The translations under genes and the position numbers were made by a program. From sequence record OQ446694.1: a stretch of 64,000 nucleotides of DNA; one strand, given 5' to 3'. Of this stretch, positions 47,950 to 56,624 are shown piece by piece. Position 1 is the first letter of the stretch. Every line of letters starts with the position of its first letter. Below the pieces are notes generated by a model. The model did no database searches. It had not been told where the DNA came from and worked only from the letters and a program-made list of their open reading frames with translations. Source of the stretch: Escherichia phage Killian.

Positions 47950-48587
47950 TTAGAATCCTTAAATTTACATTTATCATAATGCCATCTTAAAGCATTGCCT
48001 TTATTAACTTTCTTGCCACAATGCGGACAAGGCGGATACTCTGTACCTTGCTTAGTTCTCAAAGAGATCAAATCACGAGTTTCTTTAGTATGAGGAACAT
48101 CTCTTGTCGGAGAGATTGTACCATACATCGGATTAAGCACGCCGACTTTAGCAGCAGCTATATTCTTTTTAGCTTCTTCGGTTTTAGGTTTTCTCATGCG
48201 AGCTAAATGCTCTTTGGTAAATTTCCTTCCTTTAAGAGCTCTACTTATCTTTTCTCTGGTTTCTATAGAAACTTCACGTCCTATAGCAGCTTCAGATAAA
48301 CGTCGTCTACCTAATTCGTATAGTTGAGAAGAAATTTTATATGAGCGATTTTTACCAGTCAAGCACATTAAACCAAAAGCTTTCTTTAATCCTGGCGTGT
48401 CATATATTTTACATAAAAGCCAATGAGCTATAAAATGCTCTCTACCTGTTAATTCAACTAAATTTTCTTTATCATCAGAACCTCCCATACATCTAGGGAT
48501 TATATGATGAGTCTCTTTATATCCTAATAAAGGTTCCCGGGTTTTAGCCCGGGAAATTAAACTATTATATACGTTTTGATAATTCAT
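47946..48587 (-). CDS. mobE: HNH homing endonuclease MobE
   Basis: 213 aa; HNH motif ETHHIIPRCMGGSDDKENLVELTGREHFIAH; located between nrdA and nrdB as T4 mobE. Confidence 0.85.
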   Translation of the reverse strand: MNYQNVYNSLISRAKTREPLLGYKETHHIIPRCMGGSDDKENLVELTGREHFIAHWLLCKIYDTPGLKKAFGLMCLTGKNRSYKISSQLYELGRRRLSEAAIGREVSIETREKISRALKGRKFTKEHLARMRKPKTEEAKKNIAAAKVGVLNPMYGTISPTRDVPHTKETRDLISLRTKQGTEYPPCPHCGKKVNKGNALRWHYDKCKFKDSK

Positions 48588-50851
48588 TACAATTTACACG
48601 CTGCGCAATCTTCAGCTTTTGGAGTTTCTATTTCATAATCATCAGTACCAGAACCATCGCGGGTATTATGATAATAGAAATTTTTTCCGCCAAAATACCA
48701 AAAGTACAAAAGGTCATCAATCATTACAGACATTGGAACCTTTCCTTTTGGAAAAATCTGCGGGTCATAATATGTATTCGCTGAAGCTGATTGACATACC
48801 CATTTCAGCATAATAGCTACCTGCGTAAGATAAGGTTTATTACCTTTCTTAGCTAATTTCCACGTATAATCATAGAGGTCTATGTTATGTTCAATATTGG
48901 GCACGACTTGATTAAAGGAACCCTCTTTTGATTCTTTAACCGAGACTGGTCCACGTGGAGGCTCGATACCGTTTGTGCTGTTAGAAACTTGGGAAGATGA
49001 CTCACATGGCATAAGTGCTGATAATGTGCTATTACGGATGCCAAAGAGCTTAAGGTCTTCCCGCAGCGACGACCAGTCACAAACGTATTTTGGAGCTGCG
49101 ATTTGGTCAATCTTTTTATTGTACCAGTCGATAGGTAATTCGCCTCGAGACCAACGAGTGTCTGAATAATATTCGCAAGGTCCTTTTTCTTTGGCGAGCT
49201 TAATGGATGCTTTAATGAGTCCATACTGCAATCTCTCAAATAGTTCATGTGTTAAATCGTTAGCATCTTCATAAGAAGCAAAGTTACTTGCCAGCCAAGC
49301 TGCATAGTTAGTAACACCTACGCCAAGGTTTCGACGCTTTTTAGCTTTTTCTGCTTCAGGAACTGGATATCCTTGGTAATCCAACAGATTATCAAGAGCG
49401 CGAACTTGAACTTCTGCCAATTCATTAATTTTATCTTGGTCTTGCCAATCGAAGTTATCCAACACAAATGCAGATAACGTGCACAATCCAATTTCAGCAT
49501 CAGGACTATTCACATCATTTGTTGGAATAGCAATTTCACAACACAAGTTACTCTGACGAATAGGTGCCTTTTCACGAATAAACGGAGTATAGTTATTCGT
49601 ATTATCAATGAACTGTACATAAATCCTTGCTGTTCCTGATCGTTCAGTCATGAGCAATTCAAATAGTTCACGGGCTTTAATACGCTTTTTACGAATATTA
49701 GGATCTTTTTCTGCTGCTTCGTATAATTCACGGAAACGGTCTTGGTCTTTAAAATAAGAATAATAAAGTTCGCCACCCATTTCATGCGGACTAAACAAAG
49801 TAATGTAATCGTTCTTTCCGAATCGTTCCATCATTAGGTCATTCAGCTGAACACCATAATCCATATGACGGATACGGTTTTCTTCTACGCCTTTGTTATT
49901 TTTCAAAACGAGAAGATTTTCAACTTCCAAATGCCAAATAGGATAATAAGCAGTAGCAGCGCCGCCACGAATTCCGCCCTGTGAACATGATTTAACAGCA
50001 GTCTGAAAATGTTTCCAAAAAGGAATAACACCAGTATGACGCACTTCACCTGTGCCAATCTTAGAACCTTCGGCACGAATCATACCAACGTTAATACCAG
50101 TTCCAGCGCGTTTGGAGATATATTCAACAATTGAAGCAGAAGCTTTGTTAATAGACTTCAGCGAATCACCTGCTTCAATAACAACGCATGAACTAAACTG
50201 CCGAGTTGGAGTACGGCAACCAGCCATAATAGGAGTTGGTAATGAAATCTGTCGAGTAGATACTGCTTCATAAAAACGAATAACATGTTTTAATCTATCA
50301 ACAGGTTCATCTTGATGCAGTGCCATTCCAATAGTCATAAATGCAAACTGCGGAGTTTCATAAATTTGACCAGTGGTTTTATCTTTAACTAGATATTTTT
50401 CTTTTAATTGCATTGCCCCGGAATAAGTAAATTCCATATCCCGCTCATGCTTAATTTTTGATTCTAAAAATGTAATTTCTTCGGCAGAATATTTTGACAA
50501 CAATTCAGGGTCGTATTTACCTTCATTTACACAGTAAGAAATATGGTCAATAAATGAACGGGGCTCATACTGCCCGTAAACATGCTTACGAAGAGCGAAC
50601 ATTAAACAGCGTGCAGCTACATATTGATAATCAGGCTCTTCAACTGAAATAGAATTCGCGGCAGCCTTAATTACAATAGTTTGAATGTCATCAGTGGTCA
50701 TTCCATCACGGAGATATGATTTAATATTTTCATATAATTCATAAGGATCTACAGATGTTCCTTCAGCTGCCCAAGATAAAACTTTAATAATTTTTTGCGG
50801 GTCAAAGCTCTGAGAAACACCACTACTTTTGATAACATTAATTAATTGCAT
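48587..50851 (-). CDS. nrdA: Ribonucleotide reductase large subunit
   Basis: 754 aa, same as T4 NrdA; class I RNR motifs. Confidence 0.95.
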   Translation of the reverse strand: MQLINVIKSSGVSQSFDPQKIIKVLSWAAEGTSVDPYELYENIKSYLRDGMTTDDIQTIVIKAAANSISVEEPDYQYVAARCLMFALRKHVYGQYEPRSFIDHISYCVNEGKYDPELLSKYSAEEITFLESKIKHERDMEFTYSGAMQLKEKYLVKDKTTGQIYETPQFAFMTIGMALHQDEPVDRLKHVIRFYEAVSTRQISLPTPIMAGCRTPTRQFSSCVVIEAGDSLKSINKASASIVEYISKRAGTGINVGMIRAEGSKIGTGEVRHTGVIPFWKHFQTAVKSCSQGGIRGGAATAYYPIWHLEVENLLVLKNNKGVEENRIRHMDYGVQLNDLMMERFGKNDYITLFSPHEMGGELYYSYFKDQDRFRELYEAAEKDPNIRKKRIKARELFELLMTERSGTARIYVQFIDNTNNYTPFIREKAPIRQSNLCCEIAIPTNDVNSPDAEIGLCTLSAFVLDNFDWQDQDKINELAEVQVRALDNLLDYQGYPVPEAEKAKKRRNLGVGVTNYAAWLASNFASYEDANDLTHELFERLQYGLIKASIKLAKEKGPCEYYSDTRWSRGELPIDWYNKKIDQIAAPKYVCDWSSLREDLKLFGIRNSTLSALMPCESSSQVSNSTNGIEPPRGPVSVKESKEGSFNQVVPNIEHNIDLYDYTWKLAKKGNKPYLTQVAIMLKWVCQSASANTYYDPQIFPKGKVPMSVMIDDLLYFWYFGGKNFYYHNTRDGSGTDDYEIETPKAEDCAACKL

Positions 50852-51168
50852 AAGTCCTCAACTTGAAAATCGTCTTTAAACAATCGGTTAACTATATGAG
50901 CTATTATATCACCATGACACGGCTTTGGTTTACATGTGCATCCTAGCCTCATTCCACGTAAAGGCTCTAAATGTGCTTTAGTTATTTCTCCGGATTTAAT
51001 TCGACGTATAAAATCTTTTTTGAATAATTCAATGGCAGCCTCCCGGCTGCCAGCATCTTTACCGACGTAATTTCCCCAAAATGTACCACGGTGAATATTA
51101 ACATCAAAGTCGGATTTATATTTATTCACTACCTGGCATAGACGGCCCGCGCGGTGATAATTCGTCAT
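50842..51168 (-). CDS. Hypothetical protein (nrdA.1 position)
   Basis: 108-aa ORF with C-terminal [11 protein letters not shown]. Confidence 0.6.
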
Positions 51169-51385
51169 ATTGTTTTTCCGTTAAAACAGTAATATCATAG
51201 TAACAATCTGAAGAAGTTTTAACTGTAGAAATTTTATTATCAAAATACTCACGAGTCATTTTATGAGTATAATATTTTTTGCCGTAAATGATAATAGGCT
51301 GATTTGGTCCTGGAACTTCTAACTCACTTGGGTTAGGAAGTGTAAAAAGAACTGCACCAGAAGTATCTTTAAATCGTAAAATCAT
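51122..51385 (-). CDS. Hypothetical protein (nrdA.2 position)
   Basis: 87-aa ORF. Confidence 0.5.
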
Positions 51386-51408
51386 ATATCCTCACAATTG
51401 ATAATTAA

Positions 51409-52269
51409 TTACACCGCCATTTTTCCTTTAATAGGAGGGTGTGATTCGTAACCTTTAAGAACGAAATCTTTAGGCCTGAGTTTAAGAACATATTCCAATT
51501 GTTCTTTAGTAGAAAGATAGCGGAATTTATAAGGCAATCCGCCTATTACCAGTTCACAAAGCTCTTTAGGTTCACGACGTAAAATTTCTTTACATTGTTC
51601 TACGTGATTCATATAGATATGAGTATTACCACCAGAAAATATCAAATCTCCTGGAATAAGATTACACATCTTAGCTACAATATGAACTAACGCAGCATAT
51701 GATGCAATATTAAATGGAAGACCGAGGAAAACATCTACTGATCGTTGATACCACTGCAAATCCAAATAGCCATTACGCACATTAAACTGATAGAACATAT
51801 GACAAGGCGGTAATGCCATATATTTAAGTTCAGCTGGATTCCATGCTGAAACAATTTGACGTCTATCATTTGGCAGTTTTTTAATACGATTAACAACTTC
51901 TACAATTTGGTCTACACCGCCAAAATCACGCCATTGTTTTCCATAAATTGGACCAAGTTCACCGCTATGATATCCTAAATCTTTTGCTTGATTTTCGTAA
52001 TTTTCGTCCCAGACTGTTTTGCCTTGAATTAATGAATCATGCTGAATTAATCGTAAATCATTGACATTTGTGCTTCCTGATAAAAACCAAAGTAGCTCAG
52101 CAATGCAAGCTTTCCAGGCGAGCTTCTTAGTTGTTACTGCAGGAAAACCTTTACTTAAATCCCAACGTAATTTAGTACCGAACAAAGCAATTGTTCCTGT
52201 GCCTGTTCGGTCATCAGTTTCATAGCCATTTTCAAAAATGTCTTTAATTAAATCTTGGTATTGTTTCAT
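51409..52269 (-). CDS. td: Thymidylate synthase, intron-less
   Basis: 286 aa continuous ORF, equal to the spliced T4 Td length; no group I intron. Confidence 0.95.
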   Translation of the reverse strand: MKQYQDLIKDIFENGYETDDRTGTGTIALFGTKLRWDLSKGFPAVTTKKLAWKACIAELLWFLSGSTNVNDLRLIQHDSLIQGKTVWDENYENQAKDLGYHSGELGPIYGKQWRDFGGVDQIVEVVNRIKKLPNDRRQIVSAWNPAELKYMALPPCHMFYQFNVRNGYLDLQWYQRSVDVFLGLPFNIASYAALVHIVAKMCNLIPGDLIFSGGNTHIYMNHVEQCKEILRREPKELCELVIGGLPYKFRYLSTKEQLEYVLKLRPKDFVLKGYESHPPIKGKMAV

Positions 52270-52314
52270 TTAGTACCTTATATAAATTATAATACATTTT
52301 ATGAAGCTAAATAA

Positions 52315-52665
52315 TCAATACGGTTTAGCGTCAAATTTTCTTTCAATTTCAGGCGTAAAATACAATTCTTTACCACGCTTGGAAAAGCGACCAATAATAT
52401 GATAATTATTCTCATCAAACGTGATATTGCCAATATCCATAGCTTTCAACCAAATATCGATATTTCTATCCAGCTTTATATCAAAATTCCAATACGGAGA
52501 ACTATTACCAAAAATACTGCAAGCGGATTCAGTGCAATAACTGCTGCTATAAATCTTGTCTTTGGGAACTACTAATTGATAGACGCCTTTAATAAACTGA
52601 GGACCCTGCCATTTTGGTTGTTTCGCGTCTTTTTCTAATAGAATAGGGTAATAATTAAAGTTCAT
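52315..52665 (-). CDS. Hypothetical protein between frd and td (absent from this position in T4)
   Basis: 116 aa from the ATG (120 aa from upstream GTG); no recognised motif. Confidence 0.55.
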   Translation of the reverse strand: MNFNYYPILLEKDAKQPKWQGPQFIKGVYQLVVPKDKIYSSSYCTESACSIFGNSSPYWNFDIKLDRNIDIWLKAMDIGNITFDENNYHIIGRFSKRGKELYFTPEIERKFDAKPY

Positions 52666-52685
52666 ATTTTCCGCCACGCGTTATT

Positions 52686-53270
<585 letters not shown>

Positions 53271-53513
53271 TCAAAACCCCCTTTCAATAAACCATTCAGT
53301 GGCTTTATTAGCATCAAAGAATAATTCTTCATATGTCTTTTCTTTGTTTTCAAAGACTGTCACACAAACGCGTTGACATTCTCCGCAGTATTCTTCTGAC
53401 ATACTCAAAGCGTCAGAAAACATTTCATTAAATTCATTTAAATCAGGATTATACAAAGCGTTAAAAATTGCATAATCGAATTCATCATTCATAAATTCAA
53501 ATACAAAAATCAT
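53271..53513 (-). CDS. Hypothetical protein (frd.1 position)
   Basis: 80-aa ORF. Confidence 0.5.
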   Translation of the reverse strand: MIFVFEFMNDEFDYAIFNALYNPDLNEFNEMFSDALSMSEEYCGECQRVCVTVFENKEKTYEELFFDANKATEWFIERGF

Positions 53514-53521
53514 ATTATCTC

Positions 53522-53857
53522 CTAATATAAAGGATCGGGAACATATCCACTGGCTTTAATCATTTTAATTAACGTTAACATTCCTTTATTAACTGCTCGT
53601 GAGATTTCATCAAAAACTTCATCACTAAAAAGTTCTAACACACCCTTCTGAACTTTTAATTTACATCCAACAATTTCGTCATCACCTATAGTAAATTCGT
53701 TTCCGCCAATTCCACCGAAAAACTTAATTACGCCAGTTAACTGTCTTCCACGAGAATATGGGTCGTGTGATAAAGTAATATGAGTCACCCCAGGTACAGT
53801 TTTAAATTGGCAGCGGATATTTACTTGGGCAATTCCAGTTACGTGAATGTCAGACAT
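53522..53857 (-). CDS. Hypothetical protein (frd.2 position)
   Basis: 111-aa ORF. Confidence 0.5.
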   Translation of the reverse strand: MSDIHVTGIAQVNIRCQFKTVPGVTHITLSHDPYSRGRQLTGVIKFFGGIGGNEFTIGDDEIVGCKLKVQKGVLELFSDEVFDEISRAVNKGMLTLIKMIKASGYVPDPLY

Positions 53858-53867
53858 AATATTTTCC

Positions 53868-54110
53868 TCAAACAGACTTTTTCACAATTTTCCAATCAGC
53901 TTTAAACTGATTGACGTCAGAATGGTAAATCCAGAATCCTGCGCTTTCTCCATCCTCATAAAGAGGGCATCCATCGCATTCATCTTCCCATCCCATATCA
54001 CGTAAAAGTTGTTCAGCTTTTTCAACAAGTTCAGAATCTTTACCGATGATATTAAAATACCACTTACCTCTAACTTCTGAATCTTTAATGCTCTGACGTT
54101 GTAATCTCAT
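53868..54110 (-). CDS. Hypothetical protein (frd.3 position)
   Basis: 80-aa ORF. Confidence 0.5.
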   Translation of the reverse strand: MRLQRQSIKDSEVRGKWYFNIIGKDSELVEKAEQLLRDMGWEDECDGCPLYEDGESAGFWIYHSDVNQFKADWKIVKKSV

Positions 54111-54164
54111 TTTATTCTCCTTAGTTGATAGGGTAATAGTATCACACTACTACCCTGCTGTAAA

Positions 54165-54545
54165 CTACTTTTTGAAAGTTTTTCGCAAAAGTTCAATGAT
54201 TTCATCTACATTGTTTTCGTCTACAATGCAGTGAATTTTTGTTACGCCAGAAATCTTGTCTTCGACTTCATCTTCTTCAGAAGTCGGTTCTTTATACTCA
54301 CGAAAACAATGAAATTCGTCTTCGCAAATTTCTAAAAGTCTATCTTTGAGATAAAAATGCTTTCCATTTGCGCATTCAATGTGTTTTACTGCTTTGTATC
54401 CATTGGCGACGGAAACTTCTTTAACTTCAAACCATCCGCCATTATCTCGAATAGCTTTAACTATTGATGAATTAGAACGTGGACTATAATCAATAAATGT
54501 ATCAATAAGTCTTGGAACAAGTTCATACTTTCTACCAGTATACAT
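54165..54545 (-). CDS. Hypothetical protein
   Basis: 126-aa ORF with acidic patch. Confidence 0.5.
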   Translation of the reverse strand: MYTGRKYELVPRLIDTFIDYSPRSNSSIVKAIRDNGGWFEVKEVSVANGYKAVKHIECANGKHFYLKDRLLEICEDEFHCFREYKEPTSEEDEVEDKISGVTKIHCIVDENNVDEIIELLRKTFKK

Positions 54546-54588
54546 TACGTTTTCCTCATTTTAACGGGGCTTGATAGCCCCTTAATAA

Positions 54589-54816
54589 TTATTGTTCGAT
54601 CAGTCCCATATAAAATTCTGCATCTTCAGAATCCATGCCATCACAGTATTCATTAGCCATAAAGCGGGTGAGGTCTTCAAGAGGACCTTCAATAACGATT
54701 TGAATACTCCAAAACTTAGAATCTTGTACATTTGTGATTATAAGTTCAGGATAACGATTACGAATAATTTCTTCAATATATTCAAAATCAACGATGTCAA
54801 TATCAACTTTAGCCAT
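54589..54816 (-). CDS. Hypothetical small acidic protein
   Basis: 75 aa from the internal ATG preceded by AAGAGGAAA; the longer track start (54942) would include the gene 32 terminator. Confidence 0.5.
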
Positions 54817-54910
54817 GTTATTTTCCTCTTTAATCATCAGCAGTATTGCCGATAGTTGTATAGTACCATAGAAGAACAGAGATGTAAACAGTTTTGTGAA
54901 AAAAATTTTG

Positions 54911-54940
54911 AAATAAAAAAAGGGGACCTCTAGGGTCCCC
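54911..54940 (-). terminator. Rho-independent terminator GGGGACC-TCTA-GGGTCCCC plus U-tract after gene 32
   Basis: 7 to 8-bp GC stem; plus-strand AAATAAAAAA gives a U-run after the hairpin on the minus strand. Confidence 0.7.
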
Positions 54941-54962
54941 AATTAATTAGTAATATAATCTA

Positions 54963-55871
54963 TTAAAGGTCATTCAAAAGGTCATCCAGGTCCGTGTCAT
55001 CAGCACTAGATGAACTGCCAGAGCTTGAGCTCATAAAATCATCTTCAGTTTTTGTTTTGAAGTCATCAACATTGAATGCATCCAAATCATCAGCAACTTT
55101 ATCAGCTTTCTTAGCAGCAGTTGCAGCGGCACCACCCATAGCAGCAGTTCCCATAACTTGACTGAACTTAGTGCTCAGTTCTTCAAACGATTTGAATTTA
55201 TCTTTAGAAGTCATTTCAGAAAGGTCAACCATTTGTTCGAACAGTTCTTTCTGGAAAGATTCATCATCAATGTTTGGAATCGCAGATTGATTCAGGAATT
55301 TAGATTCGTCGTAGTTACTAAAACCAGAAACTTGTTTAACTTTCAGTACAAAGTTAGCACCTTCCCACGGACAAGTTACATCAACCGGAGTTTCACCCAT
55401 TTCAACATCAACTGCAATCATTGCATTGATTTTATCCCAGATTTTCTTACCGAAACGGTATTTAAATACTTTACCTTCATTTTCTGGAGCAGCTGGGTCT
55501 TTTACTACAAGAATGTTAGCCCAGTAAGAAGTTTTACGTTTAACAAGACCATACTCTTTATTGTCAGTGTTGTACAAATCATTTTTACTGATGTACTGAC
55601 ATACTGGGCAAGAATCGTAATCACCGTGGGTAGATGAACAGTTTTCAATATACCATTTACCATTTTTCTTGAAACCGTGATTTACAAGAATTGCGAATGG
55701 TGCTTGTTCATCATTTTTAGACGGAAGAAAACGAATTACTGCTTGACCGTTACCCGCATTATCGAGTTTCAGTTTCCACTCGCCTTTATCTTCAGAAGAA
55801 AAACCACCTTTATTTCCAGCCAGTTTAGCCATTTGTGCAGCGAGTTCAGCAGTAGATTTACGTTTAAACAT
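54963..55871 (-). CDS. 32: Single-stranded DNA-binding protein gp32
   Basis: 302 aa; matches T4 gp32 including zinc-binding region and acidic C-terminal tail. Confidence 0.97.
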
Positions 55872-55950
55872 TTTTATTTCCTTTTTAATTTAATTAACAG
55901 TTGGTGCTATGACGATGTATGACCTCATAGCTGGTCAGTGAGATAATTAT
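55872..55950 (-). promoter_or_regulatory. Gene 32 mRNA leader with autoregulatory translational operator
   Basis: Minus-strand leader ends ...UUAAUUAAAUUAAAAAGGAAAUAAAAAUG, preceded by a GC-containing structured segment, as in the T4 gene 32 leader. Confidence 0.5.
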
Positions 55951-55954
55951 AATC

Positions 55955-55962
55955 TATTTATA
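55955..55962 (-). promoter_or_regulatory. Late promoter TATAAATA (minus strand) upstream of gene 32
   Basis: Plus-strand TATTTATA between the gene 59 stop and gene 32. Confidence 0.45.
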
Positions 55963-55970
55963 ATAAGCAA

Positions 55971-56624
55971 TTAGTACTTACAAGATTTCACAGTTTCAAT
56001 AAAAACATTTTTAGCTTTCTGTGAATCAATATTTAAAATTTTTCTATAAGCCTTTAACTTTATAGAATAATTATTCCAGACTAAATTATCAGTCTGTTCA
56101 TCATGTTTATCGATTATATTTAAAAACGAATCAAGCAAGATAAACGTCTCAAACGAAATTATATTCGATTGAAGTAGTTTAAAAATATAACTTGATTGAA
56201 CTTTTGGATTATATTCAAAAATTTCTTTAAAAGCAGAAACTTCAACTTTTTTACTAAAATAGTAAATATTGCGAATATCTTCTTCAAACTTAAATTTAAT
56301 TTGCTTTAAGCGTCCGATATATTCACGATAAAACACAAGTGCATCAGCGTCAGAAATGTCACCAATCCAAGCATCCTGGTTAGCAACAAGATTGCTTATA
56401 AAGATTAAAGCAAGTTCCTTTAATTTATATTTTTCTGATAACTTCTGGAAAAAATACTTATCCCTTCGCTTTTGATAAGCGGCATCAGACACCCGCATGC
56501 ACCAATTATACTTAATTACATCATACTTTCCATTCATATGTTGTTTTATCATTAAGTATAATTTATAAACTGATTTACCATCAATATATCTTTCACCACC
56601 AGCAGGCATGCGGAGTTTAATCAT
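55971..56624 (-). CDS. 59: Helicase loader gp59
   Basis: 217 aa, same as T4 gp59. Confidence 0.9.
   Translation of the reverse strand: MIKLRMPAGGERYIDGKSVYKLYLMIKQHMNGKYDVIKYNWCMRVSDAAYQKRRDKYFFQKLSEKYKLKELALIFISNLVANQDAWIGDISDADALVFYREYIGRLKQIKFKFEEDIRNIYYFSKKVEVSAFKEIFEYNPKVQSSYIFKLLQSNIISFETFILLDSFLNIIDKHDEQTDNLVWNNYSIKLKAYRKILNIDSQKAKNVFIETVKSCKY

Follow-up and report, generated by a model that had tools for sequence, protein, structure and literature searches.

The genome of Escherichia phage Killian (sequence record OQ446694.1) was analyzed over a stretch of 64,000 nucleotides, referred to here as the window. In the window, the genes for dihydrofolate reductase (frd) and thymidylate synthase (td) are separated by a small open reading frame (ORF) on the same strand. 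A preliminary description made from the sequence had given this ORF 116–120 amino acids (aa) and had placed its start 8 to 20 nt beyond frd and its end 45 nt short of td. The ORF list and the sequence confirmed these spacings exactly: the frd stop is followed by the ORF start after 8 nt (GTG) or 20 nt (ATG), and the ORF end lies 45 nt from the td ATG. The parts of the locus are as follows.

48587-50851, minus strand: nrdA; homologs of nrdA.1 and nrdA.2 lie in the same minus-strand cluster as nrdA, td, the ORF and frd
51409..52269, minus strand: td, thymidylate synthase, 286 aa, intronless, directly downstream of the ORF
52264..52272, minus strand: 9-bp direct repeat TAAATGAAA, right copy, spanning the td ATG (52267-52269)
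52289..52318, minus strand: sigma-70-like element (TTGATT, 18 nt, TATTAT) in the ORF–td spacer, consensus match 9/12
52315..52665, minus strand: frd–td spacer ORF, ATG form, 116 aa plus stop, from the ORF list and the sequence
52315..52677, minus strand: frd–td spacer ORF, GTG form, 120 aa
52666..52677, minus strand: candidate 4-codon N-terminal extension from the GTG (MAEN-), read directly from the sequence
52670-52675, minus strand: SD-like GGCGGA, separated from the ORF ATG by 4 nt
52684..52692, minus strand: 9-bp direct repeat TAAATGAAA, left copy, covering the final codon of frd and its stop (TGA, 52686-52688)
52686..53267, minus strand: frd, dihydrofolate reductase, 193 aa, directly upstream of the ORF, named frd or DHFR in matching records

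Translation from the internal ATG (52665) yields a 116-aa protein that begins MNFNYYPILLEKDAK. This start is preferred because the SD-like GGCGGA precedes the ATG, whereas our reading of the sequence found nothing comparable ahead of the GTG. Public records annotate the ORF in its 115/116-aa ATG form, and the segment 52666..52677 is probably an untranslated leader that holds the SD-like GGCGGA. Several ORFs of 33–58 aa on the opposite strand (52301-52575, plus) were rejected as unsupported, being accounted for by the minus-strand gene. A scan of the ORF region found no terminator-like site and no excess of promoter-like sites over shuffled sequence. The record of phage Lutter has a promoter annotated at the position homologous to the sigma-70-like element at 52289-52318; if the element is real, ORF-bearing phages would have a td-proximal promoter that T4 does not have. 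By our reading, an AGCTTCA string in the ORF–td spacer resembles a T4 MotA box. An Rfam scan of window positions 48000-56000 gave no match. The td gene showed no sign of a group I intron: there was no Rfam match and no I-TevI, and the 286-aa ORF was continuous. It matched td of T2 and RB27 as a single piece, and td of RB3 and T4 is split by the I-TevI intron. This intron is carried by RB3, RB5-10, KMB39, FL33 and T4. Since RB3-type phages have both the td intron and the frd–td ORF, the two polymorphisms are separable.

The preliminary description had treated the ORF as unannotated, which did not hold. It is annotated in most of the approximately 350 Tequatrovirus carriers: megablast retrieved 349 records with the gene at 87–99% nucleotide identity, nearly all of them with an annotation, and the carriers include T2, RB3, RB5-10, RB27, RB33, AR1 and wV7. 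The window protein is 100% identical to P0001, a hypothetical protein of phages FL33 and SP1, which represents a 154-member cluster in which every named member is a “hypothetical protein”. It is 95–97% identical to the proteins of T2 and the RB phages, and it matched PHROG 1928 (“hypothetical protein”) with an E-value of 1.3e-33 (residues 8–116 against profile positions 2–125/126). The PHROG 1928 gene found between frd and td in T2, RB3, RB27, AR1, FL33, SP1 and others is the same gene in the same position and orientation. In the T2 record AY310907.2, which derives from a gp32 study, the ORF is unannotated and a 413-nt gap separates frd and td. The frd–td ORF is a widespread hypothetical gene that is already catalogued. 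The preliminary description had named identification as a widespread known frd–td spacer gene as the outcome that would count against it; the gene proved to be widespread and catalogued in PHROG 1928, but with no function attached. A literature search found no paper on the frd–td ORF, an absence that is no proof of its never having been discussed. MN580668.1 and PQ571308.1 give this ORF the name “putative glucose-1-phosphate adenylyltransferase”, for which there is no support; like the “putative homing endonuclease” label considered below, it looks to be an erroneous annotation that has propagated.

Could the ORF be a chance reading frame in a non-coding spacer, with no functional product? The few records that leave it unannotated (T2 AY310907.2, LC348380, TB004) would suit such a reading, and poor coding statistics had been named in advance as evidence for it; the opposite was found. 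When the protein was compared with the phage collection by tblastn, all 555 of 555 matches were a single unbroken piece covering at least 80% of the query. Pairwise dN/dS values (Nei–Gojobori) among five alleles (window, T2, AdolfPortmann, PHB12 and F2) were 0.015–0.05 for the ORF; dS reached 0.97, and each pair showed 10–35 synonymous against 1–12 non-synonymous differences. In the same genomes, dN/dS was 0.10–0.29 for frd and 0.03–0.13 for td, indicating that the ORF is constrained at least as much as its enzyme-coding neighbors. Protein-level homologs at the same locus, with identity down to 23%, and confident AF2 models also speak against a chance frame, the probability of which we regard as negligible; that reading is effectively refuted. 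The ORF is a real gene under very strong purifying selection, and the intact frame and low dN/dS bear out the earlier view of a tightly packed coding gene on the frd/td strand.

Comparison of frd–td junctions among Tequatrovirus records revealed three states.

116-aa ORF: 349-362 Tequatrovirus records
Unrelated 68-aa ORF: about 135 Tequatrovirus records
Direct frd/td overlap (T4 type): about 32 records

Direct overlap is therefore the minority state and the ORF the majority state in Tequatrovirus. Homologs also follow the DHFR gene in at least five other genera and in metagenomic T4-like contigs, so that the ORF is not the unusual insertion into the thymidylate-synthesis operon that it was first taken to be. 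The position was assessed in the window, nine phage records and four metagenomic contigs. Homologs with 23–62% identity lie directly after DHFR and ahead of thymidylate synthase in Kanagawavirus PEi20, Jiaodavirus JD18 and ValerieMcCarty04, Marfavirus F48, Moonvirus CF1 and the four metagenomic T4-like contigs; Mosigvirus PHB12 has a homolog of 92% identity in this position. The gene also follows DHFR in T2, AdolfPortmann and F2. For one distant member (L010), no DHFR was present in the 4 kb upstream, and the contig ends just past the gene. In the genera other than Tequatrovirus, the ORF start mostly overlaps the frd stop, and in JD18 the ORF end overlaps the td start; such overlapping stop and start codons suggest translational coupling. 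Across genera, the identity of the ORF to that of the window declines roughly in step with the identity of Frd, as expected for co-inheritance.

A family HMM detected two tandem members after DHFR in PEi20, F48, CF1 and contigs L009 and L011. The one nearer DHFR is of the short A type, to which the window protein also belongs, and the second is of a B type with an insert of approximately 20 residues (ALVxxGxxPTIEQYKRNP). Second post-DHFR ORFs that are B-type paralogs with a PTIEQYKRNP-like insert were located at the following positions.

L004:2817-3173
L006:2790-3143
L007:2787-3134
L009:4001-4387
L011:4001-4405

Because the B-type insert is common to several genera, the duplication is likely to be old. 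Tequatrovirus phages such as the window phage and T2 have the A type only. In contigs L017 and L018, a second ORF of approximately 113 aa, seen as an ORF and outside the HMM set, comes after the family member. In contig L011, three additional small ORFs, of 90, 94 and 183 aa, precede td; across T4-like phages the frd–td interval thus ranges from 0 to 5 genes. No paralog was found elsewhere in the 64-kb window, where the ORF was the sole hmmsearch match (E = 5e-28). An exhaustive HMMER search of 1.8 billion representative proteins returned 50 matches. Of these, 47 are genuine family clusters (50% identity), all small stand-alone proteins of 95–148 aa; the remaining three, which are long (P0053, P0069 and P0076), are SprB-repeat or ricin-repeat proteins and were dismissed as repeat artefacts. 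In a Foldseek search against BFVD, the family reached T4-like phages of Pectobacterium, Serratia, Erwinia and Aeromonas.

The 68-aa ORF (PHROG 9550), which begins MSNKLKVKDVPNAMALF, is located at L013:2578-2784 in Shigella phage Sf21, in the slot that corresponds to window positions 52270-52685. Like the window ORF, it occupies exactly the space from the frd stop to the td start, but its sequence is unrelated to that of the window ORF and it overlaps both neighbors. About 135 records, Sf21, PD112 and SP21535 among them, contain it at no less than 90% identity, and it has homologs of 74–79% identity in Klebsiella phages and approximately 43% in phAPEC8-like myoviruses. Since the phAPEC8-type myoviruses are unrelated phages, the 68-aa ORF behaves more like a mobile accessory gene, and on this sequence distribution it looks like one that moves horizontally.

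In T4 (NC_000866), the operon is the same and its flanks are 95–98% identical to those of the window, but T4 and about 30 near-identical records do not have the ORF; T4 also has the td intron and I-TevI, and the window has neither. The overlap of the T4 frd stop with the td start, stated in the preliminary description, was verified in NC_000866, where the end positions of frd and td are 145109 and 145112 and the two genes share 4 nt (ATGA). A 61-nt probe centered on the T4 junction (tataTAAATGAAAcaatacc) was fully covered in only 32 records, namely T4 strains, T4T, RB55, RB59, vB_EcoM_112, G28, F1, FN, FL12, HY03, SG1, G2133, JEP6 and FL18. In the window, frd ends with ...gtgtaTAAATGAAAtaacg and td begins with ...gtacTAAATGAAAcaata, while the T4 junction reads ...tataTAAATGAAAcaata. 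Removal of the 420 nt between the two copies of TAAATGAAA from the window sequence yields the exact T4 frd/td overlap, and phages that carry the ORF match the td side of the T4 junction from the TAA immediately ahead of the ATG. From this arrangement we infer that the T4 lineage lost the ORF by a 420-nt deletion between the 9-bp repeats, which is more parsimonious than repeated insertions. A deletion is favored because the gene occupies the site in other genera, because divergence among the ORF alleles is as great as in the flanking genes, and because the T4-type junctions are 98–100% identical to each other. The complete T4 genome contained no family member among 1831 stop-to-stop ORFs (best hmmsearch E-value, 0.44), indicating that the family is dispensable for T4 growth.

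The interval between frd.1 (DUF5417, 53868-54110) and frd also differs from that of T4. In the window it contains two small ORFs, 53271-53513 (minus) and 53522-53857 (minus), and T4 has only a 71-nt gap there. Their products are a PHROG 3183 protein of 80 aa and a DUF7247 protein of 111 aa. DUF7247 follows DUF5417 also in the metagenomic T4-like contigs L017 and L018. Judged from these gene orders, the frd–td ORF appears to be only one of several small ancestral genes that T4 has lost in the neighborhood of frd.

Sequence searches with the window protein against Pfam, NCBIfam, PADLOC (E<=1; a library of defence proteins, with anti-defence proteins outside it) and the PDB (phmmer) gave no match, in agreement with the earlier statement that it has no recognizable motif; likewise, no characterized homolog was found, as had been anticipated. 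A profile of 57 members searched against the PDB returned only noise, such as transthyretin (E = 0.06). When each of the 57 members was searched against Pfam, the matches were scattered and single (E>0.003), with no nuclease family at E<=0.1. In the 57-member alignment (A3), the only invariant columns were W19, G92, K96 and G98; G27, Y29, F94 and F103 were conserved in at least 90% of the sequences, and R93 in most. The window protein conforms to the family pattern, which consists of W19 and a G-R-F-x-K-x-G hairpin motif (92–98) in a stand-alone protein of approximately 100–140 aa. The family is aromatic-rich and mildly basic, with a median pI of 8.6. No set of conserved Asp, Glu, His or Cys residues was found across the 57 members, which makes a metal-dependent nuclease or a zinc-binding protein very unlikely. 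To judge from these sequences, the family is phage-restricted and has no catalytic signature. The AF2 model of the window protein (A type) had a pLDDT of 78 and a pTM of 0.74, with a third value of 3.7; the corresponding values for the B-type paralog P0022 were 87, 0.79 and 4.7. The predicted structure is probably a small OB-like β-barrel (β1-β2-β3-α-β4-β5), a resemblance in which membership is not established. The nearest likenesses of the OB type are SSB, PriB, RPA subunits, Stn1/Ten1, the OB domain of the ExoVII large subunit and the BOF protein YgiW.

Two other explanations for a small gene at this junction need to be weighed. The label “putative homing endonuclease”, given to the ORF in the BASEL phages AdolfPortmann, FelixPlatter, TadeuszReichstein and FriedrichMiescher and also in ValerieMcCarty04, would make it a homing endonuclease gene of the free-standing kind, intact or as a remnant, that entered the frd–td junction. 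Like the Seg and Mob genes and I-TevI, the ORF is indeed present in some phages and absent from others, here at a site between conserved genes of the nucleotide-metabolism cluster, and short direct repeats flank the ORF segment. In addition, a GVYQLV...IYSS string in the protein superficially recalls, by our reading, the GIY-YIG motif; this candidate was rejected, as the family conserves neither the positions of the string nor the Arg, Glu and Asn that the motif requires. Neither the window protein nor the 57 members matched GIY-YIG, HNH, LAGLIDADG or PD-(D/E)XK in Pfam, NCBIfam or the PDB, and invariance is limited to W19, G92, K96 and G98; no set of Asp, Glu, His, Arg or Cys that might build an active site is conserved. 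Unlike the Seg, Mob and I-TevI proteins, the window protein has no nuclease domain or catalytic residues, its length of 116 aa is roughly half that of Seg and Mob proteins, and a separate DNA-binding domain is missing. Its fold is predicted to be OB-like, and the gene shows vertical inheritance and strong purifying selection. As far as sequence comparison can tell, the label is unsupported and a homing endonuclease is essentially excluded, with a very small residual probability.

An accessory gene for counter-defence or host takeover, a “moron” at a permissive junction that inhibits immunity or a host factor of some strains only, deserves more weight, although we consider it unlikely. It would explain why close relatives have the ORF, another small gene or nothing at one site, and three alternative alleles do occur at a single junction within one genus. 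The protein is small, phage-restricted and free of enzymatic motifs, and T4 is fully viable without any family member. Many small T-even early genes of a similar kind have proved to be anti-defence factors. Arms-race genes, however, typically show rapid turnover, and the strong constraint and deep conservation seen here form a different pattern: the dN/dS of 0.015–0.05 is tighter than that of the flanking enzymes, and the position is fixed across at least six genera with different hosts. The search against PADLOC also gave this explanation no support, though its library holds defence and not anti-defence proteins.

Taken jointly, the reading that we favor, and hold to be probable, is that the ORF is an ancestral accessory gene which the T4 lineage deleted and which encodes an OB-like binder rather than an enzyme. 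It would be an early/middle-operon gene ancestral to the T4-like phages (Straboviridae, Tevenvirinae and relatives). It belongs to a Straboviridae-restricted family (PHROG 1928) whose members lie directly downstream of the DHFR gene, and its product would be made together with Frd and Td. The more specific mechanism, a non-catalytic binding module of the OB kind, is put forward only tentatively, at less than even odds. Such a protein would bind single-stranded nucleic acid or a conserved protein partner without catalysis and, like many OB proteins, might be oligomeric; the median pI of 8.6 and the conserved W, Y, F, R and K residues are indirect pointers to predicted nucleic-acid binding. It might, for instance, link or tune the enzymes of thymidylate/dNTP synthesis. 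A bolder version, which we think improbable, is that the A and B paralogs are an unrecognized OB-fold subunit of the T-even thymidylate/dNTP-synthetase machinery that tethers or regulates Frd and Td on single-stranded nucleic acid, perhaps as a homo- or heterodimer in the manner of Stn1–Ten1 or RPA32–RPA14. If this were true, the subunit would have escaped notice for 60 years because its gene happens to be deleted in T4, the model phage.

The locus is ordinary and already catalogued, and does not point to a new kind of system. The present analysis adds the family with its tandem paralogs and probably OB-like fold, a measure of how strong selection is, and the putative repeat-bounded deletion behind the T4 overlap. 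A family fixed beside DHFR across genera, under tighter constraint than the neighboring enzymes, retains a modest interest and is a reasonable candidate for study. For the biology of these phages, a T4-centered expectation is corrected: the textbook frd/td overlap, seen in about 6% of the Tequatrovirus records sequenced, would have arisen by deletion and be the derived state, and most T4-like phages have one or two small, highly constrained genes at the frd–td site.
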